Assembly: GCA_966243015.1 (NCBI GenBank)
Contig: CBIMES010000002.1
Location: forward strand, 117,458-181,457
DNA: 64,000 bases
Origin: an uncultured bacterium
Lineage (GTDB): Bacteria > Patescibacteriota > Minisyncoccia > Phycocordibacterales > UBA6065
Direction: 5' to 3'
In this document: piece after piece, positions 13,206 to 48,926 of the stretch
How positions within the stretch are numbered: the stretch's first letter is position 1
Layout of the letters: each line of letters starts with the position of its first letter
Notes under the pieces: model-generated
The model's input: the letters and a program-made list of their open reading frames with translations, nothing else
What the model was told of the DNA's origin: nothing
Database searches by the model: none
Translations under genes and position numbers: made by a program

Positions 13206-13240
13206 AGTGAGATATACTAATGTATAAGCACGAGACACAT

Positions 13241-15670: not shown

Positions 15671-15675
15671 GGAGG

Positions 15676-17949: not shown

Positions 17950-17951
17950 TC

Positions 17952-18611
17952 ATGGACAAAGAACTTCAAACCCGATTTGATTCGCTCCCTGCCGACATAC
18001 AGACGGCGCTTCAGTCGACTGACATCATCGAGAAACTCCAGGCCATCGGAAGAGCCCATGATCTGCACACCGATCAGCTTGGGGGACTGGAAGCATGTGT
18101 GAGCAGAATCATGCTCGGCATAGATAAGACCGATGATTTTGTCGAGAGCATTGAAAACAACCTTAATGTAACGACGGATGATGCCATAAACATAGCGACG
18201 GAGGTAAACACGACCATATTCCTCCCCGTCAGGGAATCCCTCATGAAAATGCAGGCCGCTGGAACAGAAACCCCCGCAATAAGCAACGAACCGACCGTCG
18301 ACGAACACCCCATGAAAGCGGACATCCTCGCCGAGATAGAGGATCCGAAGCCGGTGGCTCAGCCTATATCGTCGATACGACCCGCACCAACCCCCGCAAC
18401 CCCCGTAAACACAGCACTCCCGACAATTGAACCGTCACATCTTCCAACCACCGCATCTCAGCCGAAACCGACCCCGACATTCCAGACTCCGGCACCAAAA
18501 CCCCAGAGCTCCAGTGTCACCAACGAGTTCATAGCGGGGAAGATGACCGAGACCGTGAATATGCCGCCTCAGAAATACAGCGCAGACCCTTACAGGGAAC
18601 CGCTCAACTAG
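17952..18611 (+). CDS. Hypothetical soluble protein with a Pro/Thr-rich C-terminal half (locus member)
   Basis: The start is 3 nt after the upstream stop, suggesting translational coupling. No TM helix. PAPTPATP… proline-rich tail. Confidence 0.45.
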   Translation: MDKELQTRFDSLPADIQTALQSTDIIEKLQAIGRAHDLHTDQLGGLEACVSRIMLGIDKTDDFVESIENNLNVTTDDAINIATEVNTTIFLPVRESLMKMQAAGTETPAISNEPTVDEHPMKADILAEIEDPKPVAQPISSIRPAPTPATPVNTALPTIEPSHLPTTASQPKPTPTFQTPAPKPQSSSVTNEFIAGKMTETVNMPPQKYSADPYREPLN

Positions 18612-18619
18612 GCGAAAAT

Positions 18620-18651
18620 AAAAGGCTCAGTCCACTGAGCCTTTTATTTTT
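18620..18651 (+). terminator. Rho-independent terminator with an adjacent TATAAT -10 element
   Basis: AAAGGCTCAG-tccac-TGAGCCTTTT-ATTTTTG followed by TGTGTATAAT at 18651-18660. Confidence 0.7.
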
Positions 18652-18666
18652 GTGTATAATGAACTC

Positions 18667-19113
18667 ATGCGATTCCAGGTTCCTCAGTTCATCGAGGTGG
18701 AGGACAAGATCTTCGGCCCCCTCACCATCAAGCAGTTCATCTACCTCGTTGGAGGCGCGGGACTTTCCTTTATTGCCTACACTCTCATAGGCAACATATT
18801 CATCAGCGTCATCTTCATCCTGCCGATCATGGGCCTTTCGCTCGCCCTGGCGTTCTATAAGGTCAACAACAAGCCGCTCATCAACGTCATCGAGGCCGCA
18901 TTCAACTACTTCGTGAGCAACAAGCTCTATATCTGGAAGAAAATCGACAAGCCAATAGAAAATAAGGCCCGGGAGAACCCAGCAGGGGACCTGACCTCAA
19001 ACTTCTACATACCAAAGCTGTCTGACTCGAAGCTCAAGGATCTCACCTGGAGCCTCGACATCAAGCAGAGCGCGAACCCAGCGCAGAACCAACAGGGCAA
19101 GAAAACATTTTAG
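18667..19113 (+). CDS. PrgI-family (VirB3-like) small membrane protein
   Basis: MRFQVPQFIEVEDKIFGPLTIKQFIYLVGGAGLSFIAY… matches the PrgI family pattern (vP.dl...edKiffgLt.rQ..yl). It has two TM helices and sits immediately upstream of a VirB4 homolog, as prgI-prgJ does. The track ORF starts at 18652 (GTG). ATG 18667 is preferred and lies only about 6 nt after TATAAT, so the mRNA may be leaderless. Confidence 0.6.
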   Translation: MRFQVPQFIEVEDKIFGPLTIKQFIYLVGGAGLSFIAYTLIGNIFISVIFILPIMGLSLALAFYKVNNKPLINVIEAAFNYFVSNKLYIWKKIDKPIENKARENPAGDLTSNFYIPKLSDSKLKDLTWSLDIKQSANPAQNQQGKKTF

Positions 19114-19130
19114 GCGGTATACTATAGCTC

Positions 19131-19766
19131 ATGGCGCTTAACGCGAAGACAACACAGGAGTTCGTTCCGATAAAGGAAATCCGACAGGGAATCGTCATCC
19201 TCCGCGACGACTCTCTGCGAGGCGTCGTCATGGCGTCATCGCTCAACTTCGCCCTCAAATCGGCCGACGAGCAGCAGTCAATCATCTTTCAATTCCAGAA
19301 CTTCATCAACTCGCTCGACTTCTCGGTGCAGATCTTTATCCAGTCTCGTAAGCTCGACATCAGGCCATACATCGCCCTTCTCGAGAACAGGCTTCGCGAG
19401 CAGATGAGCGATCTCCTCAAGATCCAGACGCGCGAGTACATCGAGTTCGTGAAGAACTTCACCGAGAACTCGAACATCATGACAAAGACCTTCTTCATCG
19501 TCGTACCGTACAGCCCGACGGTCGTCTCGAAGGGAAGCGTGCCGAACCCGCTCGGCAAGAAGAAGACGGGGGAGGAGACCGCCGAGCGAAGACTCGAGCT
19601 CTTCGAGGAGCATCGCAGCCAGCTCGAGCAGCGTATCAGCGTCGTCACCCAAGGTCTTAGCCGCTGCGGAATCCGCAGCGTCGAGCTGGGAACGGAGGAG
19701 ATCGTCGAGCTCTTCTACAAGATCTTCAATCCGGGCGACACCGAGAAGCCTATACCTCTCAACTAA
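19131..19766 (+). CDS. VirB4/TrbE/PrgJ-like ATPase, N-terminal domain fragment (211 aa)
   Basis: TQEFVPIKEIRQGIVILRDDSLRGVVMASSLNFALKSADEQQSIIFQFQNFINSLDFSVQIFIQSRKLDI is the characteristic N-terminus of Gram-positive-type VirB4 proteins. It ends at TAA 19764-19766, 4 nt before the next ATG. Confidence 0.7.
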   Translation: MALNAKTTQEFVPIKEIRQGIVILRDDSLRGVVMASSLNFALKSADEQQSIIFQFQNFINSLDFSVQIFIQSRKLDIRPYIALLENRLREQMSDLLKIQTREYIEFVKNFTENSNIMTKTFFIVVPYSPTVVSKGSVPNPLGKKKTGEETAERRLELFEEHRSQLEQRISVVTQGLSRCGIRSVELGTEEIVELFYKIFNPGDTEKPIPLN

Positions 19767-19770
19767 ACAC

Positions 19771-21576
19771 ATGGGAATCTTCGATTTTCTAAAAAAGAAA
19801 GAGAATAACATCAACATCTCCCCGGTTCTTCCGCAGGAGATTTACGAGGCGGGCGTGCTCGAGCTCAAGGACGTTATCGCGCCGTCGGCCCTCAAGGTCA
19901 CGCCGCGCGAGCTTAATCTCGGAGACAAAATCGTCCGAAGCTTCTTCGTCATCTCATACCCTCGATATCTCTCAGAGTCATGGTTCGCACCGATCATCAA
20001 CCTCGACAAGGTCTTCAACATTTCCATATTTGTCCACCCCGTCGACACCGCTCGAGTTCTCCGCCAGTTCCAGAAGAAAGTGGCCGAGGTGCAGAGCCAG
20101 ATCTCCATCAGGGAGCAGAAGGGCCTCGTCCGCGACCCGATGCTCGACACCGCGTACCAGGATCTCGAGGGCCTGCGCGACCAGCTCCAGCAGGCGCAGG
20201 AGAAGCTCTTTGACGTGGGCATCTACATCTCAATCTACGCCGACAGCGACGCAGAGCTCGATAAGACTGAGAGCGAGATCAAGTCGATTCTCGAGTCAAA
20301 GCTCGTGTACGTAAAGCCGGCGCTCTTCCAGCAGGAACAGGGGTACCGCAGCAACCTACCGACGGCAAACGACGAGCTCCTTGTCCATTCCAAGCTTAAC
20401 TCAAGCCCTCTTTCGTCACTTTTCCCGTTCATATCCTTCGACCTCACCTCTGACAAGGGAATCCTCTACGGCATCAACAGGCACAACTCGTCGCTCGTGC
20501 TCTTCGATCGCTTCTCGCTCGAGAACTACAACTCGATTACCTTCGCGAAGTCAGGTTCGGGTAAGTCATACGCCACCAAGCTCGAGATTCTCCGAACGCT
20601 CATGTTCGACACCGAGGTGATCGTCATCGACCCGGAGAGGGAATACGAGTACCTTGCCGAGGCAACGGGAGGAAAGTACTTCAACATCTCCCTCAACTCC
20701 GAGCATCACATCAACCCGTTCGACCTGCCAATCCCGCGCGAGGACGAGTCGACCGCCGACGTGCTTCGCTCGAACATCATCAACCTCGTAGGACTCTTCC
20801 GCATAATGATGGGAGGCCTGACCCCCGAGGAAGACGCGCTCATCGATAAGGCGATCACCGAAACCTACGCGCTCAAGGACATCACGCCTGACTCAGACTT
20901 CAGGAACACCGAACCGCCGCTCCTGTCTGACTTCGAGCTCGTGCTTGCCGGCATGGAGGGAGGGGAGTCGCTCGTGCAGAGGCTGACCAAATACACCAAG
21001 GGAACCTGGTCTGGCTTCATCAACAGGCCGACAAACGTCGACATTAACGCGAAGTTCATCGTCTTCTCGCTCCGAGACATGGAGGAGGAGCTCAAGCCCG
21101 TCGCGATGTACATCGTGACCCACTACATCTGGAACGCGGTGCGCAAGAACCTCAAGAAGCGCCTGCTCGTCATCGACGAGGCGTGGTGGATGATGAAGTC
21201 GGACGACACCGCGTCGTTCCTCCTCGGACTCGCCAAGCGAGGCCGAAAGTACTTCCTCGGACTGGCGACCATTACCCAGGACGTGGACGACTTCCTCAAG
21301 TCGCCGTACGGAATGCCGATTATCACCAACTCGTCGATACAGATGCTGCTCAAGCAGTCCCCATCGTCGATCGACAAGCTTCAGACGGTCTTCAACCTCA
21401 CGGAAGAGGAAAAATACCTCCTTCTCGAGTCAGACGTGGGAGAGGGAATCTTCTTCGTGGGACTTAAGCACGTGGCCATCAAGATTATCGCCTCGTACAC
21501 CGAGGACCAAATCATCACCTCTGACCCTTCGCAGATTCTCGCCATCAAGGAAGCGAAAAGAAACCTTCAGGGGTAG
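19771..21576 (+). CDS. VirB4/TrbE/PrgJ-like ATPase, ATPase portion (601 aa)
   Basis: …LKDVIAPSALKV…YPRYLSESWF…, Walker A FAKSGSGKSYA, Walker B LLVIDEAWWMM, and C-terminal …GLATITQDVDDF… form the VirB4 (CagE_TrbE_VirB) architecture. Together with 19131..19766 it totals about 812 aa, typical of a single VirB4. Confidence 0.8.
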   Translation: MGIFDFLKKKENNINISPVLPQEIYEAGVLELKDVIAPSALKVTPRELNLGDKIVRSFFVISYPRYLSESWFAPIINLDKVFNISIFVHPVDTARVLRQFQKKVAEVQSQISIREQKGLVRDPMLDTAYQDLEGLRDQLQQAQEKLFDVGIYISIYADSDAELDKTESEIKSILESKLVYVKPALFQQEQGYRSNLPTANDELLVHSKLNSSPLSSLFPFISFDLTSDKGILYGINRHNSSLVLFDRFSLENYNSITFAKSGSGKSYATKLEILRTLMFDTEVIVIDPEREYEYLAEATGGKYFNISLNSEHHINPFDLPIPREDESTADVLRSNIINLVGLFRIMMGGLTPEEDALIDKAITETYALKDITPDSDFRNTEPPLLSDFELVLAGMEGGESLVQRLTKYTKGTWSGFINRPTNVDINAKFIVFSLRDMEEELKPVAMYIVTHYIWNAVRKNLKKRLLVIDEAWWMMKSDDTASFLLGLAKRGRKYFLGLATITQDVDDFLKSPYGMPIITNSSIQMLLKQSPSSIDKLQTVFNLTEEEKYLLLESDVGEGIFFVGLKHVAIKIIASYTEDQIITSDPSQILAIKEAKRNLQG

Positions 21577-21624
21577 GGGAGCGGTGGATTGGCGCGCGGG
21601 GTTTCGTGCTACAATATACTCGTC

Positions 21625-22623
21625 ATGCTTCTCAAAAGGATATCTCTTATCTTTGCTTTTGTCGGTGTACTCCTCTCATGCTCCTTTGCCCATGCTCAGT
21701 CTATTCCAGGCATACAGAATCCTCTCGTCGTGAGCGTCATACCGACCGAACCGAGGGCCAATCAGACGGTCTATATCGGCATTCAGAGCTACAGCCTTGA
21801 TCTCGACAAGGCTCTCATCACTTGGTACGTAGACGGCAAGGAAACATCGAGCGGGGTCGGCCTCAAGGAATTCAGGGTACTCGCCGGACCGTCGGGTTCG
21901 ACCAAGACGGTCGACGTAAAGGTGGCAACCGTGGGCACAGGAACCTTCTCCGATACCGTCGTCATCAGGCCGGCAGACGTTGGCCTCCTCTGGGAATCTG
22001 ACACCTACACCCCTCCTTTCTACCAGGGAAAGGCTCTTCATTCTTACAACGGCTCCTTCAAAGTTACCGCGTTGCCAGAGCTCTACACTTCGGCGGGCGC
22101 AAAGATTGATGCGAAGGACTTGATCTACACCTGGAAAAAGAACGGTGAGATTCAGGGTGCCGCATCTGGATACGGCAAGAACACCTATATCGGCAGCCAG
22201 ACGAGCTACCTCAGGGAAGGGGAGGATATCTCCGTTGAGGTGTCAGCGCCGCGAGACAACGTGGTCGCCTCAAACAGCATCCTCATCACGCCAGCGGTGC
22301 CTTACGTATCGTTCTACGAGAAGAGCCCTCTCTACGGAATCATCTACGAAAAGAGCCTTCGCAACAGGACCAGCCTGACCAACGAGGAGGTCTCGATCAT
22401 CGCCGAGCCATTCTTCTTCTCAATTCCAAACCGAGACTCCTCGAACCTCTCGTATACCTGGACCCTCAACGGCAGCCCCCTCCCTGACTTCTCGGGAGAG
22501 AGTCTCATGACGCTCCGAAAGGCGGGCGGGGAAGCGGGAAGGGCTGATCTTCGCGTCGTCCTGCAGAACAACATGAAGCTCCTTCAGGGCGCCTCGCAGA
22601 ACCTAACCATTTTCTATGAATAA
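21625..22623 (+). CDS. Hypothetical secreted beta-rich protein (locus member)
   Basis: Signal peptide MLLKRISLIFAFVGVLLSCSFAHAQS. No TM helix afterwards. No family assignment. Confidence 0.45.
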   Translation: MLLKRISLIFAFVGVLLSCSFAHAQSIPGIQNPLVVSVIPTEPRANQTVYIGIQSYSLDLDKALITWYVDGKETSSGVGLKEFRVLAGPSGSTKTVDVKVATVGTGTFSDTVVIRPADVGLLWESDTYTPPFYQGKALHSYNGSFKVTALPELYTSAGAKIDAKDLIYTWKKNGEIQGAASGYGKNTYIGSQTSYLREGEDISVEVSAPRDNVVASNSILITPAVPYVSFYEKSPLYGIIYEKSLRNRTSLTNEEVSIIAEPFFFSIPNRDSSNLSYTWTLNGSPLPDFSGESLMTLRKAGGEAGRADLRVVLQNNMKLLQGASQNLTIFYE

Positions 22624-23821
22624 AACCCGAGCACTCGCCATCGCCTCAGCAAGCATCGTCACGCTCTTCGCGGGCTGGGCAACTGTCGCGTCGGCACAGA
22701 CAACCGAATACGTTCCCCTCACGACGGTTCCCGGCCTCTTCAAGCAGGGAAGCTCGACCAACCCCGTCACCATCATCAAGGGAATCTACGGACTGGCCAT
22801 CGGCATCGGCAGCGTCATCGCCACTGTCATGCTCATCATCGCCGGCTTCGAGTATATGTACCAGGAGTCAATCACGGGAAAGTCACAGGCAAAGGAGCGC
22901 ATCACCAATGCGTTTCTCGGTCTCTTGGTCATCCTTGGATCGTACATACTCCTCCGAACTATCAACCCAGCACTTGTAGACTTCAACCTCACACTCCAGG
23001 GTGGCAGCAATCGACTCAAGGGACTGATTGCCGACAAGGCATATGACGATCTAAGGGAAAGGCAGAAGGCCTTGCAGGAAGATCAGACCGCCATCAACAA
23101 GCTCAAGGCAAATGGCGTGGAAATGGAGAAGCTGATTGAGCAGAAAGAGGACACCATGCGCGGCTACGACTGCGAGAACGAGGATAAGGCTGATTGCGAG
23201 AGAATCGAGAAAGAGATCGCCGAGCTTGAAACGCGAGTAAAAGAGAACACGGACAACATCGCCGCAACGCAAATAGAGCAGGGAAAGGGGATTGCCTCGA
23301 CCTATGTGTACGAACTCCTCGAAACCAGGTATTGGGAGCTCGCCGGCAAGCTCAGACAGGACAACGGTCAGGGGGAGCTTGAGTTCGACGAATTCCTTCA
23401 GGCAGCCTCAGCCGCATACAAGAGCTCAATCGACGGCGTGGAGAAACAGCTGGTCGCCATAAAAGCCGTACAGACGAACGATGCCGGGATCCTGAAACAA
23501 AAGACGGATACCATCAGAGACCTCGAGAACGAGAAAAAATATCTCGCCCTCGCCGCTACGTACGTCATTTGGCAGAACAGCTATGACAATAACGGCCTCG
23601 ATCTCACGGATCTAGCGAACAGCATCAAGTACAGGACTGATGCCTACACAAAGAAGCTCAAGGAGGCGGGTTTCAGCAACGAGTTCATCGAGGAGCGCGT
23701 AAAACGCGACAGAACCAATCTCATAACCGCATTCTCGATGTCTGAGGAGGTACAGGAAGACTGCGCATCAAATACCGATGTGCTCCCGGCCGACTACGCA
23801 CAGCTCTGCTCAAACGCATAA
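22616..23821 (+). CDS. VirB2/TrbC-like T4SS pilin-like protein with a roughly 270-aa C-terminal coiled-coil extension
   Basis: Signal peptide (…VASA|Q) is followed by two hydrophobic helices (IYGLAIGIGSVIATVMLIIAGFEYMY and ITNAFLGLLVILGSYILLRTI), the classic T4SS pilin topology. The C-terminal part is coiled-coil-like. The start overlaps the upstream gene by 8 nt. Confidence 0.5.
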   Translation: MNKTRALAIASASIVTLFAGWATVASAQTTEYVPLTTVPGLFKQGSSTNPVTIIKGIYGLAIGIGSVIATVMLIIAGFEYMYQESITGKSQAKERITNAFLGLLVILGSYILLRTINPALVDFNLTLQGGSNRLKGLIADKAYDDLRERQKALQEDQTAINKLKANGVEMEKLIEQKEDTMRGYDCENEDKADCERIEKEIAELETRVKENTDNIAATQIEQGKGIASTYVYELLETRYWELAGKLRQDNGQGELEFDEFLQAASAAYKSSIDGVEKQLVAIKAVQTNDAGILKQKTDTIRDLENEKKYLALAATYVIWQNSYDNNGLDLTDLANSIKYRTDAYTKKLKEAGFSNEFIEERVKRDRTNLITAFSMSEEVQEDCASNTDVLPADYAQLCSNA

Positions 23822-23827
23822 AACAAC

Positions 23828-25060
23828 ATGTCGAAAAAAACATTCACGCTCTTCATCATAGTACTCCTGGGAATCATCGCCTTCCTCGGCTGGTTCTTTT
23901 TCTTCCGCGCGAATGAGTCAACGCTTCCCGGTGACCCCAACCAGCCGACCGACCTCTTTCCCTTTGGGCAGGGGAGCACAACCCCTGATGGAAACAACAC
24001 GGGGCAAACGGGCAGCTCGACGGGGCAGATAGACATCTCGGGTGACACCCCACGCCTTCCTCGACTAAGACAAATCTGGCGAGACCAGACCGCAGGCGCC
24101 ACGTTCTTTCCAGGCACGGGAACCACGACAAGCGTGAGGTTCGTCGACAGAGCAACGGGTCACATCTACGAGTCTCCTATCGAGGCGACGGGGGAGACCA
24201 AGATATCGAACGTCACCATCCCACAGGTGCACGAAGCGCTTTGGGCATCAAACGGAAACGAGCTCATCTTCCGCTACCTCAGGAGCGATTCGATGACGAT
24301 ACAGTCGTTCTATGGAACGCTCGCCACATCGAGCGCCACTACAACCATGACGGTGGAAGGTTACTTCTTGCCCGCAAACATCCGCGACATCTCGGTATCA
24401 GGCGACAGGATTCTCTATTTCAACCCAGCCGTTCAGATCGGAAGCCTCGTCGACGCACGCGTCGACGGCACAGGAAGACGCGTGGTCATGAGCTCCGAGG
24501 CACGAGACTGGTCTCTCTCATACACCAACACAAAAACCGCATTCCTCGAAACCAGGCCAAGCGGTCTCGTAAAGGGATTCGGCTACGCCCTTAACCTCGC
24601 CACGGGAGCGACTTCAAAAATAGCTGGTGACATACTCGGTCTCACCGGAACCATAAACCCAGCAGGGGACAGAGCGCTTATGTCAGCGCAGGAGGGCGGA
24701 AGCATCGTCACGGCAGGCTACGACATGACGTCAAAGAGGGCCTCCACCCTTTCCATCAAAACCCTTTCCGACAAATGCGTGTGGAGCAGGAAAAAGGCCG
24801 AGATGGCATACTGCGCAGTGCCCTCAAACATTCCGTCGGGAACATATCCTGATGACTGGTATCGAGGCGACACGAGCTTCTCCGATCGACTCTGGACCGT
24901 CGACCTCTCGACAGGGGAGACCGATCTCATCATGGACCCATCCTATGAGACCGGCCAGAGCATGGACATCATGAAAATCAGCGTGGACAGCGGGGAGGAG
25001 TACATTACATTCACCAACAAGAAGGACATGAGCCAGTGGCTGCTGAGGATCGAGGAATAA
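23828..25060 (+). CDS. Hypothetical N-terminally anchored extracytoplasmic beta-rich protein (last locus gene)
   Basis: TM helix FTLFIIVLLGIIAFLGWFFFF, then a Gly/Thr-rich linker and a roughly 330-aa domain. A bidirectional terminator follows. Confidence 0.45.
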   Translation: MSKKTFTLFIIVLLGIIAFLGWFFFFRANESTLPGDPNQPTDLFPFGQGSTTPDGNNTGQTGSSTGQIDISGDTPRLPRLRQIWRDQTAGATFFPGTGTTTSVRFVDRATGHIYESPIEATGETKISNVTIPQVHEALWASNGNELIFRYLRSDSMTIQSFYGTLATSSATTTMTVEGYFLPANIRDISVSGDRILYFNPAVQIGSLVDARVDGTGRRVVMSSEARDWSLSYTNTKTAFLETRPSGLVKGFGYALNLATGATSKIAGDILGLTGTINPAGDRALMSAQEGGSIVTAGYDMTSKRASTLSIKTLSDKCVWSRKKAEMAYCAVPSNIPSGTYPDDWYRGDTSFSDRLWTVDLSTGETDLIMDPSYETGQSMDIMKISVDSGEEYITFTNKKDMSQWLLRIEE

Positions 25061-25106: not shown

Positions 25107-25862
25107 CTATCTAACCTTCACCGCCAAATTCTCCTTCGCCTCCTTCTCCCGCGCCATCTGCCGTCGGATGTACAGCTCCTGCCCGATCATGAACAGGTTG
25201 CTCGTCACCCAGTACAGGGCGAGGGCCGAGGCCACGTGGTAGGCGATGAAGAGGATCATGATAGGGAAGACGTACTTCATCTGAGTCTGCATGTTGCGGG
25301 CGAAGTCCTCCTGGAAGTTGCCGTTGCCGGTCTTGGGGGCAGCCTTTGGTATCGAGAGCCTTATCTGGAAGTACTGGGAGACCGCCGCGAGAACCGCGAG
25401 AGCGAAGCTTTTGGTACCCATGTCTATGAGACCAAGGAAGTTCATGTTAACAACCTCAGGAACCTTAACGAACGAGTAGAGGAGACTCGGGTCAGGCGCC
25501 GAAATGCCTGACGAATAAAAGATTCGATACAAGGCGAAGAAGATAGGAAGCTGGAGAAGGATAAGGAAGATGCCGGCAAACGGGTTTATGCCCTTTGCCT
25601 TGTAGAAGGCCATGACCTGAAGCGCCTGCGCCTGCCGATCGTCCTTGTACTTCTCCTTGATGGCATTCATCTCGGGCTCGTACATCTTGAGGGCAACCTG
25701 GGTGCGGGCAGACTTTCTCGAAAGAGGGAAGAGGATGACCTTAACGATAACCGTGAAGAGGATAATGACGACGCCTGCGTCGAGGAAGGGGAGGTGGCCG
25801 GCGAGGAATACAAGACCGTTATAGAGGGGCTCGTAGATGAACGTAGTATAAAGATAATGCAT
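25107..25862 (-). CDS. yidC: Membrane protein insertase YidC/Oxa1 (short form)
   Basis: 251 aa and multi-TM. Its position downstream of rnpA and rpmH is the conserved rpmH-rnpA-yidC arrangement. Hydrophobic core motifs are typical of the 60-kDa IMP family. Confidence 0.8.
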   Translation of the reverse strand: MHYLYTTFIYEPLYNGLVFLAGHLPFLDAGVVIILFTVIVKVILFPLSRKSARTQVALKMYEPEMNAIKEKYKDDRQAQALQVMAFYKAKGINPFAGIFLILLQLPIFFALYRIFYSSGISAPDPSLLYSFVKVPEVVNMNFLGLIDMGTKSFALAVLAAVSQYFQIRLSIPKAAPKTGNGNFQEDFARNMQTQMKYVFPIMILFIAYHVASALALYWVTSNLFMIGQELYIRRQMAREKEAKENLAVKVR

Positions 25863-25915
25863 ATGATTATTGTGCGGGCTAAGCCATAGTAGCCTATTTC
25901 AGACCCTTACTCAAT

Positions 25916-26242
25916 CTACGCGAGACCAGCTTTTTTCAACGTAGCCTGTATATCAGAGGAAACCGCTTCAGGGGAAGCGGCTAGACACTCCTTCTTAGGG
26001 AGAATCATGGCAAATACCGGTGTTTTAAGGCTTTTCTTTGCGGACCTGAGGGCAAGATACACCTTTCGGCGCACGGAATTCCTGTCGACGGCCCTGGCTG
26101 CCACTTTTTTGGACACAGGCACGGCGAACTTCGCCCTCTCGGCGGGAACGAAGCGCAAAGAAAGAAGCGTCCCGAAGACGCTTTTTCCTTGAGAGAGAGC
26201 TGCTACCTCTTTTGTGGTGAGACGGTCAGCCTTCCTGAGCAT
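25916..26242 (-). CDS. rnpA: Ribonuclease P protein component
   Basis: 108 aa basic protein. …FAVPVSKKVAARAVDRNSVRRKVYLALR… matches the RnpA RNR motif region. It lies between rpmH and yidC. Confidence 0.8.
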   Translation of the reverse strand: MLRKADRLTTKEVAALSQGKSVFGTLLSLRFVPAERAKFAVPVSKKVAARAVDRNSVRRKVYLALRSAKKSLKTPVFAMILPKKECLAASPEAVSSDIQATLKKAGLA

Positions 26243-26245
26243 GGG

Positions 26246-26383
26246 TTAGATCTTAACAATCTTCTTTCGACCCTTCTGTCGTCGTCGGACGAGCACCTTC
26301 TTGCCGGTAGGGGAGTTCTTTCGGGCAAGGAAGCCATGGGCTCGAGCGCGCTTCCTGTTCTTTGTTTTGTATACGATTGCCAT
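26246..26383 (-). CDS. rpmH: 50S ribosomal protein L34 (not in the supplied ORF track because it is under 60 aa)
   Basis: The reverse strand translates to MAIVYKTKNRKRARAHGFLARKNSPTGKKVLVRRRQKGRKKIVKI, the L34 signature. It is directly upstream of rnpA and divergent from dnaA. Confidence 0.85.
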   Translation of the reverse strand: MAIVYKTKNRKRARAHGFLARKNSPTGKKVLVRRRQKGRKKIVKI

Positions 26384-26503
26384 AAATTGGGATTTCTAAA
26401 AGATATGTTCACATATTATTAACATACTTAGCGCCTGTTCACAAGTAGCGCGCCTCGTACCACGCTATATACTTACAGGAACCATAACGATCCGGTAACT
26501 CAC

Positions 26504-27847
26504 ATGGACAACAAGAAACTCTGGGAAAGCGTGTTAGGTGCACTGGAACTTCAGGTATCCAAGGCAACCTTCAGCACCTGGCTGAGAGAGACCCACATCC
26601 ACAAACAGGATGACGGCGTCATCTACCTCTCGGTACCGAGTATCTTCGCCAAGGACTGGCTCTCCAACAAGTTCCACAAGGTTATCCTCAAATGCCTCAG
26701 GGACTTCGGCAACGACGTGAGGTCGCTCGAATACGTCATCGCCAAGGCCCCCGAGAAAAAGCAGGAGGTCGAGGAACCAAAGAAGCCGGCACCGACCTAC
26801 GAGCTACCCCTCCAGGATCTCTATATAAGCAAAGAAGACAACCTCAACCCGAAATACACCTTCGACACCTTTGTCATCGGTCCCTTTAACGAGCTCGCCC
26901 ACGCCGCGGCGCAGGCGGTAATGAAGAATCCCGGCATCGCCTACAACCCACTCTTCATCTACGGGGACACGGGAAGAGGGAAGACCCACCTCATCCAGGC
27001 CGTCGGCAACTACATCAAGCACAACCACCCCTCAAAGAAGGTGTTCTACATCACCTCAGAGCGCTTTGCCGTCGATTACATGAACTCGCTTCAGCTTGGA
27101 AAGGCGAACCAGTTCAAGGAAAAGTACCGAAAGTACGACGTCCTCATCATGGACGACGTGCAGTTCTTCTCGAGCAAGGAGAAGTCACAGGAGGAGTTCT
27201 TCCATCTCTTTAACACCCTCCACGAGAACAACAAGCAGCTCATCTGCTCTTCGGACAAGCACCCGAACCACATCCCCGACCTCGAAGACCGCATAAAATC
27301 ACGCTTCAGCGCGGGAATGATTGTCGACGTGTCCGCCCCAGACCACGACTCACGCCTCGCCATCCTCAGAAACAAGACCCTCACGCAGAGAATCAACCTC
27401 TCGGACGAGACCATCGAATTTCTCGCCAAGACCGTGGAGGGAAACGTGCGAGAACTCGAAGGCATCGTGAACTCCATCGCCATGCAGACCCATATCCGGG
27501 GAAGGGAGCTCAACCTCATCGAGATCAAGAATCTCATCAAGAACAGCACGAAGCCGAAGAAAACTGTGTCTATCAAGGACGTGGTGAAGGTCGTCTGCGA
27601 CTTTTACAACATAAACGAGAATTCCGTATACGAGAAAACCCGAAAAAAGGAGGTCGTTAAGCCACGACAGGTCATCATGTACATCCTCAGGGAGGACCTG
27701 AACATCTCATACCCTTCAATTGGCGAGAAAATGGGAGGCCGCGACCACACCACCGTCATACATTCTTGCGAAAAGATAAAGGAGGATATAAAGTCTGACC
27801 AAACGCTCATACAGGAGGTCAATCACATCCGATCCCTCATCTCATAA
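26504..27847 (+). CDS. dnaA: Chromosomal replication initiator protein DnaA
   Basis: N-terminal domain, AAA+ Walker A (NPLFIYGDTGRGKTHL), sensor motifs, and C-terminal DNA-binding helix-turn-helix (…VVKPRQVIMYILRED…). 447 aa. Confidence 0.95.
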   Translation: MDNKKLWESVLGALELQVSKATFSTWLRETHIHKQDDGVIYLSVPSIFAKDWLSNKFHKVILKCLRDFGNDVRSLEYVIAKAPEKKQEVEEPKKPAPTYELPLQDLYISKEDNLNPKYTFDTFVIGPFNELAHAAAQAVMKNPGIAYNPLFIYGDTGRGKTHLIQAVGNYIKHNHPSKKVFYITSERFAVDYMNSLQLGKANQFKEKYRKYDVLIMDDVQFFSSKEKSQEEFFHLFNTLHENNKQLICSSDKHPNHIPDLEDRIKSRFSAGMIVDVSAPDHDSRLAILRNKTLTQRINLSDETIEFLAKTVEGNVRELEGIVNSIAMQTHIRGRELNLIEIKNLIKNSTKPKKTVSIKDVVKVVCDFYNINENSVYEKTRKKEVVKPRQVIMYILREDLNISYPSIGEKMGGRDHTTVIHSCEKIKEDIKSDQTLIQEVNHIRSLIS

Positions 27848-28120
27848 CTGGGGATAAACTTGTTAATAAGTGGGTATAAGCTTGTGGGTAAGTTTATACA
27901 CAGACTGTGAATTGCCTGGGGATGGAATCTAACAAACTGTGGATGATTTTGAAGGATGGGGAATAGCCCCTGTTTCTATTCGCGAGAACTCCACAGGAAC
28001 ACGTCCTTATAATGCCATCAAACCCTTACAGATAAACGTTTTATGGGTTATACACATATCCCCAGTGATTATAGAAATAGTAGTTATTCTTTAAATATAT
28101 AAGAGAGATATACTAGGAAC
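27848..28120. promoter_or_regulatory. oriC: Candidate oriC: AT-rich dnaA-dnaN spacer with multiple DnaA-box-like 9-mers and an AT-rich DUE
   Basis: One-mismatch variants of TGTGGATAA/TTATCCACA occur at about 27849 (TGGGGATAA), 27885 (TGTGGGTAA), 27894 (TTATACACA), 27935 (TGTGGATGA) and 28045 (TTATACACA). An A/T-rich stretch (atagaaatagtagttattctttaaatatataagag) lies at about 28070-28112. The rpmH-rnpA-yidC | dnaA-dnaN context supports it. Confidence 0.6.
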
Positions 28121-29221
28121 ATGAAAATCGAGTGCATCAAGGAAAAACTGATTGAGGCGGTTTCCAAGGCTGACAGACTGACGGGGAAGAACCTCTCTCT
28201 TCCCGTGCTCTCGTGCGTCAGCATCAAGACCGACGAGAATTCCCTCCTTGTACGCGCGACAAATCTTGATTGCGGTATCGAGATCAGGATCCCCGCCAAA
28301 GTCGACGCTACGGGCGAAATTGCCGTTCAGGGAGGCATCCTCACCTCTCTTCTCTCTGGCCTCCCGAAGGAGAAGAACGTGACCCTTGAGCTTAAGGAGG
28401 GGAACGTGCTCGTCTCCACCTCTTCCAATAGAACGCTGGTTAAGGCCTTTCCCGCCGAGGATTTCCCCTCGATTCCCAAGATTGAGGCTTTCAAGAGCCT
28501 TGAGCTGAGCCCGAAGACCCTCCTCAAGGGATTTAAGTCGGTTGTTTACAGCGCATCTGTTTCGACTGTTAAGCCTGAGCTTGCGAGCGTGTACGTCTAC
28601 AAGGACGAGGCTGACCTTGTGTTCGTGTCCACCGACTCGTTCAGGCTCGCGGAGAAGAGGCTTAAGATTAAAGAGACCCTCGACTTCCCGTCGGTAATCA
28701 TTCCCGCCAAGAATGTGACCGACATCGTCAGGTCTCTCGAGGCAGCGACTGACGACGTGCGCGTCATTTTCGACAAGAATCAGATCGCTTTCGAGTCGAA
28801 GGACACCTATCTCATGTCCCGCGTCATTGACGCCACCTTCCCAGACTACAAGAACATCATCCCCAAGGCATTCGTGACCGAGGTTGTCGTGCTTAAGCAG
28901 GATTTCATTGATTCTCTCAAGACGTCTCATATCTTTGCGGACAAATTCAATCTCGTGAACATCAAGGCCCTTCCCTCGAAGAAAACCTTTACCATATCAA
29001 CCAAGAACAGTGACGTGGGTGAGTACGTAAACACCATCGATTCGAGCGTCACGGGCGAGGACGTGGATATAAACTTTAACTACAAGTACATCTCAGACTG
29101 CTTCCAATCGATCGACGCCGACAGCCTCTCCCTTTCGATCGCGGGCATGAACAGGCCTCTCGTCATCAGGGGTGTCTCCGACAGGTCGTTCATGTGTCTT
29201 GTGATGCCAATGAACAGATAG
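28121..29221 (+). CDS. dnaN: DNA polymerase III beta sliding clamp
   Basis: 366 aa with three-domain clamp architecture and the typical MKIECIKEKLIEAVSKADR… N-terminus. It follows dnaA. Confidence 0.9.
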   Translation: MKIECIKEKLIEAVSKADRLTGKNLSLPVLSCVSIKTDENSLLVRATNLDCGIEIRIPAKVDATGEIAVQGGILTSLLSGLPKEKNVTLELKEGNVLVSTSSNRTLVKAFPAEDFPSIPKIEAFKSLELSPKTLLKGFKSVVYSASVSTVKPELASVYVYKDEADLVFVSTDSFRLAEKRLKIKETLDFPSVIIPAKNVTDIVRSLEAATDDVRVIFDKNQIAFESKDTYLMSRVIDATFPDYKNIIPKAFVTEVVVLKQDFIDSLKTSHIFADKFNLVNIKALPSKKTFTISTKNSDVGEYVNTIDSSVTGEDVDINFNYKYISDCFQSIDADSLSLSIAGMNRPLVIRGVSDRSFMCLVMPMNR

Positions 29222-29222
29222 C

Positions 29223-29474
29223 ATGTTCAACGTCGCCGACTATTTCAAGAAGTTCGCGAAAATAGAGGGTGAGAGCCTCGCCTTGAGAGATTCGATACGG
29301 GTGGCGCTGCTTGAGGTGTGCGGGGTGGGGAAGGCTGATTTTGAGGTTAAGAAAGGTGTTTTGATTATGAAGGGTCACCCTGTCATCAAGTCGATGGTGT
29401 TCATGAAAAAGAAAGAGGTTCTCGAGCATCTCTCGAGAACCTCTCCTCAGTCCAGGATTTCCGATATCCGCTAG
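29223..29474 (+). CDS. Small protein, possibly DUF721/DciA-like (putative helicase-loader family)
   Basis: 83 aa, immediately after dnaN. The C-terminal …GVLIMKGHPVIKSMVFMKKKEVLEHLSRTSPQSRISDIR resembles the DUF721 pattern (…vL.v.v.s…eL.f.k.eil.rLn…v.dIr). The call rests on pattern and position only. Confidence 0.35.
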   Translation: MFNVADYFKKFAKIEGESLALRDSIRVALLEVCGVGKADFEVKKGVLIMKGHPVIKSMVFMKKKEVLEHLSRTSPQSRISDIR

Positions 29475-32014
29475 CCGTCGAGCTGTACCTGGAAACTCGA
29501 TGAGGCTTCCGCCTTGTTGTACACGGTATCCGTTCCTATGACGCGGATATCGTTTTTCTCGCTGATGTTCGGGATGTCCTTGGGGCTAAACCTGAAGATG
29601 AACGGCTGTTTGTCGATGGTCTCGATGAAGGCGCCGTTTATGTAGAGGGATGCCTTTGCGAGTGAGTATCTGCCCGCTGATGACACGAAGAGCGAGATGC
29701 TCTCGTTAGGGCCATAGAGCTTCGACCCGTCGACGTTCTGGATGTGTATGGTTGGTCTGCCCTCTATTACATGCACGTCGTCCGTTTGGGTCGGTATCTC
29801 AGAGCCATCCTCGTCCTCGTACCCATTCTCGAGGGCCCATTTCCTTACAGGCGTCTCCCATCGCTCGAACTGCGGGTCGTCGGCGGGATTCTCTGGCGGT
29901 GGACCGAGCGGGTTCTTCTTGTCTATCCAGTAGAGGATTGAGTGCACCGACTGGACCTCTCGCTCCTCGCGGGTCTCTGGTGGGGTGAGATCGGTCGCGA
30001 GCTTTCCGGATATCGTGTCTACGAAATATGTCTCGCCGCCGCGCCACATGCCGTACATGATGGGCTTCAGGTTTGTCCTGTCGATTGGGTTCGGCTCGAC
30101 AAAGCGCTCGTCTGGTACGATCGCGAGGGCCTCTTTCATTGCTGCGTTCCAGAGGGGGGCAACGATTTGCCCCGCGACCTTTTTTACCATGGGCGCGTTG
30201 TCGTTGTTTCCTGCCCATACGCCGATGACGATGTTGGGGCTGTAGCCAACGGTCCATGCGTCGACCGAGTTGTTGGTGGTTCCCGTCTTCACCGCGACGT
30301 CTCGGTCGGAGAAGTTGAGCACGGAGTTCGGCCCGTAGGCCGGTGTTCGCGCCTCGTTGTCGCTCAGGATGTCTGAGACGGTTCGTGCGACGTTCGGGTC
30401 GAGAACCTGGCTTGATCGCTGGGAGGGGAGAGTGACCTCTTTTCCGTTCGAATCAAAAACCTGAAGCACAGACTTGTAAGGAACTCTTGTGCCGTCGTTC
30501 GCGAACACGCCGTAGGCGCTCGTCATCTCGAGAAGGGAGATCTCGCCGCCTCCGAGCACGAGGGTGAGGCCGTAACGGTCACCATCGGTGAGGCTCGTAA
30601 TACCCATGTCCTTGGCGAGATCAAGGGAGTCCTTGATGCCGGCGAGGTAGAGAGTCTTGATGGCTGGAATGTTGATTGATTGGGCCAGGGCGTTCCTGAG
30701 GCTGATTGGCCCTCTGAACGTCTCGTCGTAGTTTCCGGGGCTGTAGCAGACGGCGTCAGGCGTGAGGGGCTCGCTTTCGAGCGAGCATTGCGAGCTGAAT
30801 TCGGTCTTAAGGTCGAAGACGACGGTGTCGGGAGTGTATCCCTTGGTGAAAGCCTCGGCGTAGATAATCGGCTTCATCGTCGATCCCGGCTGTCTGTTCG
30901 GCGCGATGGCCGCGTTGAACTGGCCGTCGATGTCCTTGTCGAAGTAGTCTCGCGACCCAACCATGGAAAGTATCTCTCCGGTCTTTGGGTCAATTGCCAC
31001 GAGCGCCGCGTTCTCGGCGGTGAAGTCCTCTTCGTTTCTGAGGGCGGTCGCCTTCACAAGCGCCTCGTTCTTGTCCTGGAGGTCTATGTTGAGCGAGGTG
31101 ATGACTTTGTAGCCGTTGTTGTCGAGCGCCTCCTCGCCGAGTATGCCTTCGAGGTAATCCTTCACGAAGAACACAAAGTGGGGGGCTCTTATTCCGTATT
31201 TGGTCTGAGGGGAGAATGTGACCCTCTCGTTTTTCGCCTGTTCGTATTCCTCGGGGGTAATCTGTCCCGTTTCGAGCATGAGGCTGAGCACGAGATTCTT
31301 GCGGGCCTCGAGCTTGTCGGTGTTCTTTCCGTACGGCGAGTAGAAGGTCGTCGCCTGGGGAATGGCCGCAAGATACGCCGCCTCCGCCAGGGTCACGTTC
31401 TTCGAAGACTTGTTGAAGAACTGTTGTGCGGCCTCCTCGACGCCGTACATGTTGCCGCCGTACGCAGTTTCATTGAGGTAGAGCTCAAGAATCTTGTCCT
31501 TGGGAAGCTGTCTGTCGAGTTTGATGGCGAGAACCCATTCCTTCAGCTTTCGCGAAATTGTCTTGTCCGTGGTGAGCACGGTGTTCTTGATGACCTGTTG
31601 GGTGAGGGTGGATCCTCCCTGGCTGTAGCCTCCGGTCGTGAGGTTGGCAAAGACCGCGCGGATGATTGACGAGATCTTGATGCCTCCGTGCTCGTAGAAG
31701 TCCTTATCCTCGATGGCGACGGTCGCCTTCTTGATGTAGGGGGAGACGTCGTCTCCGGACACGACGGTTCTCTTCACGGTGTCGTGCAGGTCAAAGAGAA
31801 GCACTTCGCCGGTGCGGTCGTATATCTTGGTTGATTCCGATATTCTGCGCTGGTCGAAGGAGGTGAGGTCGGGGAGCCTGAACGATGAGATCCAGAGTAT
31901 GCCGCCGCCGGCGACCAGGAAGGCGAGGGAGGCGCCGAGCACCAAGAGGTCTTTCGCGGTGTGGGACTTAAAGTGTCGTACGATCTTTCGGACCGTGCTT
32001 TTTTTGGTGTGCAT
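29471..32014 (-). CDS. mrcA: Class A penicillin-binding protein (PBP1A: glycosyltransferase + transpeptidase) with a C-terminal extension
   Basis: N-terminal TM. GT51 motifs (EDKDFYEHGGI, GGSTLTQQ). Transpeptidase motifs (S*TMKP, SxN, KTGT). 847 aa. Confidence 0.9.
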   Translation of the reverse strand: MHTKKSTVRKIVRHFKSHTAKDLLVLGASLAFLVAGGGILWISSFRLPDLTSFDQRRISESTKIYDRTGEVLLFDLHDTVKRTVVSGDDVSPYIKKATVAIEDKDFYEHGGIKISSIIRAVFANLTTGGYSQGGSTLTQQVIKNTVLTTDKTISRKLKEWVLAIKLDRQLPKDKILELYLNETAYGGNMYGVEEAAQQFFNKSSKNVTLAEAAYLAAIPQATTFYSPYGKNTDKLEARKNLVLSLMLETGQITPEEYEQAKNERVTFSPQTKYGIRAPHFVFFVKDYLEGILGEEALDNNGYKVITSLNIDLQDKNEALVKATALRNEEDFTAENAALVAIDPKTGEILSMVGSRDYFDKDIDGQFNAAIAPNRQPGSTMKPIIYAEAFTKGYTPDTVVFDLKTEFSSQCSLESEPLTPDAVCYSPGNYDETFRGPISLRNALAQSINIPAIKTLYLAGIKDSLDLAKDMGITSLTDGDRYGLTLVLGGGEISLLEMTSAYGVFANDGTRVPYKSVLQVFDSNGKEVTLPSQRSSQVLDPNVARTVSDILSDNEARTPAYGPNSVLNFSDRDVAVKTGTTNNSVDAWTVGYSPNIVIGVWAGNNDNAPMVKKVAGQIVAPLWNAAMKEALAIVPDERFVEPNPIDRTNLKPIMYGMWRGGETYFVDTISGKLATDLTPPETREEREVQSVHSILYWIDKKNPLGPPPENPADDPQFERWETPVRKWALENGYEDEDGSEIPTQTDDVHVIEGRPTIHIQNVDGSKLYGPNESISLFVSSAGRYSLAKASLYINGAFIETIDKQPFIFRFSPKDIPNISEKNDIRVIGTDTVYNKAEASSSFQVQLDG

Positions 32015-41558: not shown

Positions 41559-41563
41559 CCCAT

Positions 41564-42283
41564 ATGCTGTATCTCATTCACGGAACTGATATCGAAACCG
41601 CTCGCGCCAAGGCCCGCGCGCTCTTTGAGGCGCTCAGGCAGAAGAAGCCAGACGCGTCTGCGGGGACCCTGTCGGCCGAGCAGGTGACATTCGAGCGCCT
41701 CGACGAGCTTACCCAGACGCAGGGCCTCTTCGAGAACAGGCAGATTATTTTCATGGACCGCACGCTCGAGAATAAGGACATGCGTGACGTCGTCCTCGAG
41801 CGCATCGACGCCCTTGCCGAGTCGCCGAACATATTCATATTCTCGGAGGGCAAACTCACCAAAGAGGTTCTCAAGAAATTCGAGAAGCGCGCCGAGAAGG
41901 TACAGGAATACGAGGCAAAAGAGGCGTCCAAGGCAAAGCAGGACGGCGGTTTCTTCGCTCTCGCTGACGCTCTCGGCTCTCGCGACAAGAAGAGCCTCTG
42001 GGTACTCTTCAGGGACGCGATGGACAAGGGCGCCGCGCCAGAAGAAATTCACGGTATTCTCTTCTGGCAGGCGAAGTCTCTTGCGCTCGCCGAGCGAACG
42101 CGCGACGCGGCCGAGGCGGGACTCAATCCGTTCGTGTATGGGAAGGCGAAGAGGCACTCTTCAAACTTCAGGGAAGGCGAAGTTGACTCGCTCGTGTCTC
42201 GGCTCGTCCATCTGTATCATCGGGCGCATCGCGGTCAGGAGGATTTCGAGGTGTCGCTCGAGAAGCTGATTCTCGATCTCTAG
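41564..42283 (+). CDS. holA: DNA polymerase III delta subunit-like protein (HolA family, short)
   Basis: N-terminus MLYLIHGTDIETA… and overall helical clamp-loader-delta-like pattern (…ILFWQAKSLALA…). It lies immediately downstream of polA. Assigned by pattern only. Confidence 0.45.
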   Translation: MLYLIHGTDIETARAKARALFEALRQKKPDASAGTLSAEQVTFERLDELTQTQGLFENRQIIFMDRTLENKDMRDVVLERIDALAESPNIFIFSEGKLTKEVLKKFEKRAEKVQEYEAKEASKAKQDGGFFALADALGSRDKKSLWVLFRDAMDKGAAPEEIHGILFWQAKSLALAERTRDAAEAGLNPFVYGKAKRHSSNFREGEVDSLVSRLVHLYHRAHRGQEDFEVSLEKLILDL

Positions 42284-42814: not shown

Positions 42815-42887
42815 CCGCCCATAGCTCAGTCGGTAGAGCAGCTCCCTTTTAAGGAGAGGGTCGTTGGTTCGATTCCAACTGGGCGGA
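42815..42887 (+). tRNA. tRNA-Lys (anticodon TTT)
   Basis: Cloverleaf: acceptor CCGCCCA/TGGGCGG, D-arm GCTC-AGTCGGTA-GAGC, anticodon loop CTTTTAA, T-arm GTTGG-TTCGATT-CCAAC, discriminator A. An upstream TGGTATTAT extended -10-like element is present. Confidence 0.9.
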
Positions 42888-42893
42888 CACTGT

Positions 42894-47840: not shown

Positions 47841-47849
47841 AAAAATGTT

Positions 47850-48419: not shown

Positions 48420-48502
48420 GGCCCAAGTATAGCAGGGGAAGGGGATAAAACGCATCTGGCGCTTGCTTTTTCCGTTGTTCGCTGTTAAAGTAATCGCCAC
48501 AT

Positions 48503-48766
48503 ATGCCAATCACATCTTCAGCAAAAAAGGCCCTTCGATCGTCAAAGCGCAAGCGCGTGTACAACGTACGCCGACGCGACGCGGTCTCTGAGGTCACCAA
48601 GCAGATCAAGAAGCTCGCCGTCTCAGGCAAGAAGGCCGAGGCAAACAAGCTCCTCGCCCAGGCCTACAAGCAGCTCGACAAGTCAGCGAAGGCCGGCTTC
48701 ATCAAGAAGAACACCGCCGCTCGAAACAAGTCGCGACTCTCTGCCCTCATCAAGAAGGTAAAGTAA
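48503..48766 (+). CDS. rpsT: 30S ribosomal protein S20
   Basis: MPITSSAKKALRSSKRKRVYNVRRR… is the S20 signature. 87 aa. Terminator at 48774-48805. Confidence 0.9.
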   Translation: MPITSSAKKALRSSKRKRVYNVRRRDAVSEVTKQIKKLAVSGKKAEANKLLAQAYKQLDKSAKAGFIKKNTAARNKSRLSALIKKVK

Positions 48767-48773
48767 TCAAAAG

Positions 48774-48921: not shown

Positions 48922-48926
48922 TACGA

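Follow-up and report, generated by a model that had tools for sequence, protein, structure and literature searches.

A predicted chromosomal replication origin in a Candidatus Paceibacterota bacterium and a probable domain-only DciA encoded directly after dnaN

We analyzed a 64-kb stretch of genomic DNA from an uncultured bacterium (contig CBIMES010000002.1; hereafter the window), which carries the genes yidC-rnpA-rpmH on the minus strand, the divergent genes dnaA-dnaN on the plus strand and, directly after dnaN, a small open reading frame (ORF) of 83 codons, designated here ORF83. This locus is likely the chromosomal replication origin of a bacterium of Candidatus Paceibacterota (Minisyncoccota, within the Candidate Phyla Radiation, CPR), and ORF83 most likely encodes a loader or operator of the helicase DnaB. 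The gene order is the ancestral bacterial origin arrangement and the origin itself is ordinary. A first-pass annotation of this DNA had placed oriC in the 273-bp spacer between dnaA and dnaN (27848-28120). This placement was supported by four independent tests, namely the clustering of DnaA boxes, an AT-rich tract, a switch in strand composition and an architecture conserved among relatives, all of which put the predicted unwinding core in that spacer.

Results

DnaA boxes and the AT-rich tract of the dnaA-dnaN spacer

When the window was scanned for 9-mers with at most one mismatch to TTATCCACA, ten were detected, a number not above chance for the 64 kb overall. Five of them lay inside the dnaA-dnaN spacer, and elsewhere no 273-bp window contained more than one. 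Shuffling the spacer 5000 times with its dinucleotides preserved gave 0.13 boxes on average and two at most, so that none of the 5000 shuffles reached five. The earlier claim of at least five near-consensus 9-mers in an AT-rich dnaA-dnaN spacer therefore held. The predicted DnaA-box consensus of the clade is the relaxed TTATNCACA, exact matches to which occurred five times in the window (0.63 expected), with two in the spacer.

The predicted boxes form an upstream cluster of five at 27849-27946. Four of these are in reverse orientation (TTATCCCCA, 27849-27857; TTATACCCA, 27871-27879; TTACCCACA, 27883-27891; TCATCCACA, 27938-27946) and one is in forward orientation (TTATACACA, 27894-27902). Closer to dnaN, a tandem pair of co-oriented boxes, TTATACACA and (A)TATCCCCA, occupies 28048-28064 of the plus strand with an 8-nt offset and points to dnaN. 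Four nucleotides past this pair, in the position of a DnaA-trio, the plus strand carries the trinucleotide repeats TTA TAG AAA TAG TAG (28069-28083). The GC content of the whole spacer was 0.38, compared with 0.55 window-wide, and decreased to 0.25-0.28 in 60-bp windows over an AT-rich tract at 28066-28112, which is a predicted DNA-unwinding element. Further, the 45-mer with the lowest GC content in the 64 kb (0.156) starts at 28068, which bears out the unwinding element proposed earlier beside dnaN. An above-chance cluster of DnaA boxes is thus found beside an AT-rich element in a spacer that adjoins dnaA.

The AT-rich tract probably overlaps the 5' leader and ribosome-binding site of dnaN, and we considered whether it is merely the promoter, leader or ribosome-binding site of this gene, with boxes that regulate dnaN and an origin located elsewhere. 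A Shine-Dalgarno-like AGGA closes the block 4 nt upstream of the dnaN start codon (ATG), the conserved AGATATACTAGGAA resembles leader sequence, and the DNA examined amounts to 64 kb only. However, the box density of the spacer is unique in the window, and the switch in composition described below, which has the polarity of an origin, maps to the spacer within ~230 bp. Further, a consensus promoter scan found no plus-strand site at the dnaN block, and the total of promoter-like sites was below chance; a sigma-70 scan of the region did not rise above chance and placed no promoter on the plus strand of the rpmH-dnaA or the dnaA-dnaN spacer. We therefore regard the leader explanation as very unlikely.

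A switch in strand composition between dnaA and dnaN

Raw cumulative skew had its GC minimum at 29167 and its AT maximum at 29123. Because coding strands in this DNA are C- and A-rich, raw skew is confounded by gene orientation, and we therefore separated coding-strand from replication-side effects. A regression with terms for both gave a best breakpoint at 28-29 kb for either skew. To the left of 27.8 kb, the third-position A/T skew of the plus strand was positive in almost every gene, and between 28.1 and 46.5 kb it was negative in almost every gene, regardless of the strand on which the genes lie. The cumulative third-position A-T curve peaked at 28147, and the positions within 5 of its maximum were 27811-28264. 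The adjacent and co-oriented dnaA and dnaN fell on the two sides of this switch, with A3/T3 counts of 67/34 and 27/72, respectively (Fisher P=2.8e-8). Since composition switches downstream of dnaA, the dnaA-dnaN spacer is favoured over the rpmH-dnaA spacer.

We also considered a replication terminus, since the majority of neighbouring genes are directed at the site. This was rejected: when GC3 and AT3 skews are compared among like-oriented genes, the polarity is that of an origin, with the right arm richer in G3 and T3 on the plus strand.

Two points count against an origin at this position. The skew extrema are those of the 64-kb window and are thus local. Further, with an origin at ~28.0 kb, only 33% of the coding length and 41% of the genes in positions 1-50000 are co-oriented with the inferred forks; most genes near the origin would be transcribed head-on to them, which is atypical. 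The whole cluster at 13.2-25.1 kb and most genes at 29.5-38 kb face the origin, although this is a small sample. The skew polarity is still that of an origin, so the gene-strand bias here is opposite to the usual rule.

One segment of the right arm, 46560-54466, differed from the remainder in that its third-position A/T skew was mixed or positive. Its GC content is lower (0.51), its intergenic gaps are long and it carries six tRNA genes; it may have been inverted or acquired. A separate tRNA gene at 42815-42888 (+) was labelled 'tRNA-Stop (tta)' by ARAGORN. This label was rejected as a register artefact, because the Rfam alignment shows the anticodon loop CUUUUAA of an ordinary tRNA-Lys(UUU).

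Degenerate boxes in the rpmH-dnaA spacer

The spacer between rpmH and dnaA (26384-26503) is 120 bp long with a GC content of 0.40. The first-pass annotation had noted two TGTTCACA-type repeats here as something other than DnaA boxes. Both copies are real (at 26406 and 26436; five copies in the window versus 1.1 expected), but they are not an alternative to DnaA boxes. The block TTGTTCACATATTATTAACA...TTCACAAGTA...TATACTTA is kept in nine genomes, and in the closest relative (L008) the first TGTTCACA copy is a perfect TTATCCACA. We therefore read the repeats as parts of degenerate DnaA boxes, of which the spacer contains three: ATGTTCACA (26405-26413), TTATTAACA (26416-26424) and CTGTTCACA (26435-26443). 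They are co-oriented, lie 11 and 30 bp apart and have 2-3 mismatches in the window.

Such boxes raise the question of whether unwinding takes place in the rpmH-dnaA spacer, or whether both spacers are needed as in the bipartite origins of B. subtilis, C. difficile and H. pylori. The spacer is AT-rich, the third-lowest-GC 45-mer of the window starts at 26382, and the three degenerate boxes are conserved. Further, bipartite origins around dnaA are known, and in C. difficile unwinding in vitro requires both halves. On the other hand, dnaA has the third-position composition of the left arm and dnaN that of the right arm, which puts the switch downstream of dnaA; the upstream boxes are weak, and no module of trinucleotide repeats and AT-rich tract follows them. 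Unwinding in the rpmH-dnaA spacer, or a need for both spacers, thus appears improbable. A role of the 120-bp spacer as an accessory cluster or dnaA operator is fully possible and is compatible with an unwinding core in the dnaA-dnaN spacer. The 120-bp spacer is probably the promoter/operator of dnaA, through which dnaA is autoregulated, or the accessory half of a bipartite origin.

Conservation of the locus among relatives

The arrangement of yidC-rnpA-rpmH divergent from dnaA-dnaN and an ORF83-like gene, followed by a convergent PBP1A gene, was common to all 13 related Paceibacterota loci compared (eight genome loci, L001-L008, and five metagenome places within L009-L015). The ORF83 relatives at these loci were 20-70% identical.

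We compared the dnaA-dnaN spacers in an alignment of nine genomes and, more broadly, in 13 anchored spacers including that of the window. In 12 of the 13, the 3' part contains the same module, in which tandem boxes precede a frequently GC-rich stretch of 4-6 nt, then TA(G/A) repeats and then AT-rich DNA that extends to the dnaN ribosome-binding site. The tandem boxes occur as TTATNCACATATNCACA 39-71 bp upstream of the dnaN ATG in these 12 spacers and are the most conserved block of the nine-genome alignment. They are followed by TA(A/G) repeated four to five times (in the window, L001, L002, L004-L009, L012, L014 and L015). Within the nine-genome alignment, A is invariant at 28073, 28076, 28079 and 28082, and T at 28084, 28087 and 28090. 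The exception is the L003 spacer, in which the box pattern is missing and CAG repeats replace those of the TA(G/A) type. In the 5' half of the spacer, reverse-oriented TG(G/T)GGATAA boxes are alignable across the relatives.

Three of the related records (L001, L006 and L007; CAYJCZ010000001.1, CAZBVG010000004.1 and CAYJAC010000001.1) bear the title 'uncultured Candidatus Saccharibacteria'. At their origin loci, however, synteny with the window and the Paceibacterota records is complete, with protein identities of 65-80% (~45-53% for rnpA), and these labels may be wrong.

A predicted basal unwinding system

The basal unwinding system (BUS; Richardson, 2019; Pelliciari et al., 2021) was defined in B. 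subtilis, and 85% of bacterial origins are predicted to have one (PMC8287927). Its parts are a pair of tandem boxes, ~10-13 bp of spacer counted from the better box, at least three trios and AT-rich DNA (PMC8287927). The module of the window comprises the tandem boxes at 28048-28064, a 4-nt spacer and four to five periodic repeats at 28069-28083, and it thereby fits the positional definition of the BUS, which asks for at least three trinucleotide motifs (3'-NAN-5') within 16 bp of a DnaA box, usually one of a co-oriented tandem pair. This architecture points to an origin of the BUS type, as in incC of B. subtilis.

The sequence of the repeats argues against this assignment. Canonical trios read 3'-GAT-5' opposite 5'-TTATCCACA-3', which corresponds to 5'-CTA-3' on the box strand; those of C. 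difficile read 5'-CTACTACTATTACTACTA-3' on the box strand, those of H. pylori have the same orientation, and the dinucleotide captured in B. subtilis is 3'-GA-5'. In the window, the box strand reads 5'-TA(G/A)-3'; the best frame of the canonical strand gives 3'-(C/T)AT-5' in place of 3'-GAT-5'. The repeats are thus the reverse complement of the canonical arrangement. A less likely interpretation is that the GAT motif, which lies on the strand opposite to that of the canonical BUS, could reflect a different geometry of DnaA on single-stranded DNA (ssDNA) in this phylum.

On a BUS-type origin, the DnaA encoded at the locus would bind the relaxed-consensus boxes (TTATNCACA) in the dnaA-dnaN spacer, with the tandem co-oriented pair at 28048-28064 as its platform. 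A DnaA oligomer would grow from this pair over the neighbouring TA(G/A) repeats and would then melt the AT-rich tract just upstream of dnaN. The three weaker boxes upstream of dnaA would autoregulate dnaA or form the second half of a bipartite origin.

ORF83 belongs to a conserved gene family

ORF83 (29223-29474, +) encodes 83 amino acids. A phmmer search of 1.8 billion proteins yielded 77 family representatives (clustered at 50%) of 81-102 aa, which aligned over their full length at E<=1e-3; close homologues numbered 17 and were 82-84 aa long. The family, which is one of the CPR, was enlarged to 171 proteins by a profile search of 5.8 billion proteins. Its members share an N-terminal MFN(V/I)xDY and a C-terminal DIR, and an ORF83-like gene lay directly 3' of dnaN at 13 of the 13 related places examined. 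The family is annotated only as "hypothetical", and no precomputed Pfam domain was present among the top matches.

Inside the ORF83 coding region, the minus strand carries a hairpin with a 15-bp stem and a T run (29412-29446), which resembles an intrinsic terminator and is positioned to terminate the convergent PBP1A gene. Equivalents are present in L008, L003 and L015. The hairpin may add a constraint at the nucleotide level on the conserved KKKEVLEHLSRTSP stretch. It also permits the interpretation that the reading frame of ORF83 is fortuitous and simply overlies the PBP1A terminator and 3' end. However, the 77 representatives share their length and align throughout, the two termini are conserved, a confident fold is predicted for the protein, and the ORF is also kept in genomes without the hairpin. 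A chance ORF is thus effectively refuted by conservation.

In Firmicutes, the usual small gene after dnaN is yaaA, which encodes an S4-like protein. We rejected ORF83 as a YaaA, as the Pfam scan gave no S4 match; its predicted fold is also, we assume, unlike the S4 fold.

ORF83 as a divergent domain-only DciA

The evidence that ORF83 is related to DciA comes from its family. PF05258 (DUF721, the DciA domain) was matched by 35 of 85 family members (best E=1.6e-5), including 5 of 17 close members, and was the sole Pfam family matched repeatedly, since any other was hit by at most 2 of the 85. Two members exceeded the Pfam gathering score of 24 bits, P0046 (25.5 bits) and P0062 (24.7 bits; profile positions 4-88 of 89). 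Both are full-length phmmer matches of ORF83 (E=2.2e-5 and 1.3e-4, respectively), and P0046 carries a precomputed "DciA (weak)" flag in its contig. Among the 120 matches listed from the 5.8-billion-protein profile search, none had a precomputed PF05258 flag, and the bridge to DciA therefore rests on the hmmscan of individual members.

An AlphaFold2 model of ORF83 (mean pLDDT 77.8) consists of a long helix alpha1 (residues 4-33), a beta1-beta2 hairpin (strands 40-43 and 46-49), a kinked alpha2 (53-61/63-73) and a terminal strand beta3 (81-82). This is a KH-like fold, and its topology is that published for the DciA domain (Blaine et al., bioRxiv 10.1101/2022.01.24.477630). When the model was compared with the PDB using Foldseek, V. 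cholerae DciA (VcDciA; 8a3v_D) gave the top probability (0.98) and the top TM score (0.65; rmsd 2.8 A over 79 columns), and D. radiodurans DciA (7ykm) ranked eighth.

A profile of bona fide DciAs was seeded with M. tuberculosis Rv0004, a sequence validated by PF05258 database proteins that were 99-100% identical. Aligned with this profile by hhalign, the family profile gave P=8.5e-4, and G34, the hairpin, alpha2 and beta3 fell into register as expected. The family hidden Markov model (HMM) scored real DciAs at a median of 3.5 bits, compared with -2.3 and -1.6 bits for shuffled and reversed controls, and 18 of 120 real DciAs but none of the controls reached at least 5 bits. The genomic context is also that of dciA. 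The dnaA-dnaN-recF-gyrB operon includes PF05258 genes in 15 of 23 phyla (PMC5109545), and ORF83 adjoins dnaA-dnaN.

Several results weigh against this assignment. ORF83 itself had no match to PF05258 at E<=1 in the HMM search that the first-pass annotation had suggested, and it matched no NCBIfam family. All Foldseek E-values were >0.09, as expected for a domain of only ~80 residues, and the unrelated FKBP26 had a lower E-value than VcDciA. The hhalign probability was only 24%, with a template that is narrow because mycobacteria dominate the bona fide DciA profile. Sequence searches of the PDB with two family profiles returned no DciA but chance heavy-metal-binding and designed proteins. The DciAs of M. 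tuberculosis and D. radiodurans, both bona fide, match each other only at E=0.06, and weak pairwise signals are therefore normal in the DciA family.

Taken together, the family-level PF05258 matches, the fold and the hhalign alignment lead us to read ORF83 as very probably a divergent domain-only DciA of the "Group 4" kind. The DUF721-like C-terminus noted in the first pass thus escapes detection by Pfam on ORF83 alone but is real at the level of the family, and the proposed kinship with DciA is supported by this, by the predicted fold, by the profile-profile alignment and by strict synteny.

A possible helicase loader

With nothing but the KH-like DciA (DUF721) domain, ORF83 would act as the DnaB loader or operator in place of DnaC/DnaI. 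We regard this function as the most likely one; it is the role proposed for 'Group 4' DciAs, which have neither an N- nor a C-terminal extension. ORF83 would load DnaB through the surface of its KH domain, through ssDNA binding by DUF721, or with an unknown partner; the literature raises the same three possibilities for Group 4 DciAs.

No AAA+ loader of the DnaC/DnaI type (~250-310 aa, IstB/DnaC-like) was found in the window, in which the sole IstB_IS21-like match was the AAA+ domain of DnaA. None of the Walker-A proteins of the window resembled DnaC, DnaI or DnaB; four were confirmed by Pfam (ComM, UvrD, a TraG-like ATPase and RuvB), and the other two were labelled GspE/PilB-like and TsaE-like on motif and size only. 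ORF83 has no P-loop.

What is known of VcDciA bears on the proposal in both directions. Its C-terminal helix hairpin stacks on the LH-DH module of DnaB, and the kinked alpha2 and beta3 of its KH domain also contact the DH helix (PMC9912922). ORF83 is without the extension that binds LH-DH, and no domain-only DciA has been experimentally tested (Blaine et al., bioRxiv 10.1101/2022.01.24.477630); both points count against a loader function. Alternatively, ORF83 could be a small KH-like nucleic-acid-binding protein with the ancestry or fold of DciA that does not load DnaB, another factor being the loader; such a protein could, for instance, bind origin ssDNA or act as a regulator of DnaA or DnaN. 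The weak PF05258 signal of ORF83 itself and its missing helix hairpin would fit this alternative. So would the statement that domain-only DciAs may require an extra partner (Cargemel et al.; PMC9912922), as would the DUF721 domain of Caulobacter DciA, which is described as binding ssDNA (PMC12547741). Nevertheless, the linkage to dnaA-dnaN is strict at every locus examined, which is the typical context of dciA (PMC5109545), and alpha2 and beta3 of the VcDciA KH domain also touch the DH helix of DnaB. Further, most Bacteroidetes, Thermotogae and Chlorobi have DciA solely in the domain-only form (bioRxiv 10.1101/2022.01.24.477630), and no alternative loader was seen within the window. We therefore consider a non-loading ORF83 unlikely and retain DnaB loading as its most likely function.

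Gene content of the locus and its surroundings

The ORF map and the Pfam and NCBIfam profile matches confirmed the gene names, coordinates and order given earlier, and the lengths of the two spacers were also right. On the minus strand, yidC (25107-25862) encodes a short YidC/Oxa1-type insertase of 251 aa (PF02096, E=6e-47; TIGR03592, 161 bits), rnpA (25916-26242) the RNase P protein of 108 aa (PF00825, E=4.9e-12) and rpmH (26246-26383) ribosomal protein L34 of 45 aa (PF00468, E=5.7e-15; TIGR01030, 42.4 bits). On the plus strand, dnaA (26504-27847) encodes a protein of 447 aa with domains I, III and IV (TIGR00362, 504 bits; PF11638, PF00308, PF08299), and dnaN (28121-29221) encodes the beta sliding clamp of 366 aa (TIGR00663, 237 bits; PF00712, PF02767, PF02768). 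The ATG of ORF83 lies 1 nt past the dnaN stop codon, and its translation is possibly coupled to that of dnaN. The final 4 nt of ORF83 overlap the end of the convergent gene for PBP1A, a class-A PBP (29471-32014, -). None of recF, gyrB and the genes for DnaB and DnaC/DnaI was found within the window.

Directly to the left of yidC lies a run of genes for large secreted or membrane proteins (13220-25060, +). Among their products are a TraG/VirB4-like P-loop ATPase (19771-21576) and one protein that contains a type IV secretion pilin domain (22616-23821), and the run looks like a type IV secretion system-like or pilus cluster. On the right, 39135-42283 holds polA (807 aa) and, after it, a holA that is unusually short (DNA polymerase III delta, 239 aa, weak Pfam matches).

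Discussion

CPR bacteria have reduced genomes, and their replication machinery has been little studied. A search of the available literature found nothing linking DciA or helicase loading to CPR/Patescibacteria, and candidatus lineages were left out of the DciA grouping of Blaine et al. (bioRxiv 10.1101/2022.01.24.477630). The ORF83 family is an unannotated and unusually small addition to the known DciA family, and its recognition as domain-only DciA would fill the helicase-loader gap for the phylum. We tentatively suggest, as a possibility somewhat short of probable, that DnaB loading in Paceibacterota, and perhaps across much of the CPR, is carried out by a KH-domain-only DciA of 81-88 aa that is co-transcribed with dnaN at the origin. 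If so, these proteins would be among the smallest helicase loaders proposed and a natural minimal system for the unresolved question of how extension-less ('Group 4') DciAs work. The family would thus provide a well-conserved and very small test case for DciAs without the DnaB-binding extension. The textbook origin is useful chiefly as an anchor for the assembly and orientation of CPR genomes, and the polarity of its repeats and the head-on orientation of its genes are minor oddities.

The predicted origin resembles those of B. subtilis and C. difficile (incC/oriC2) in that an unwinding module lies between dnaA and dnaN, with a co-oriented box pair, a spacer of ~4 nt, repeats of 3-nt period and an AT-rich tract, and in that further DnaA boxes are present upstream of dnaA. 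In contrast to the BUS of these species, the two boxes of the window overlap by one base (8-nt offset), and the origin implies no loader machinery of the Firmicute DnaD/DnaB/DnaI type. The locus shares with the ancestral operon dnaA-dnaN-recF-dciA-gyrB-gyrA (Brezellec et al., 2016; PMC5109545) the linkage of dciA to dnaA-dnaN, with rpmH-rnpA-yidC divergent upstream. Unlike that operon, it has no recF, gyrB or gyrA, and the convergent PBP1A gene follows directly.

ORF83 is most similar in layout to Group 4 DciAs, such as those of Bacteroides fragilis (96 aa), Thermotoga maritima and Rickettsia conorii (bioRxiv 10.1101/2022.01.24.477630). Like these, it has a single KH-like DUF721 domain without an N- or C-terminal extension, the same predicted topology and a neighbourhood of replication genes. 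It differs from them in being shorter (83 aa), in scoring alone below the PF05258 gathering threshold, in its database annotation as hypothetical and in the position of its gene, which immediately follows dnaN and has neither recF nor gyrB close by. With VcDciA (8a3v, in complex with DnaB) and D. radiodurans DciA (7ykm), ORF83 shares the fold of the N-terminal KH-like domain; VcDciA, which is 157 aa long and ~16% identical, additionally has a linker and a C-terminal helix hairpin, whereas ORF83 consists of the domain only.

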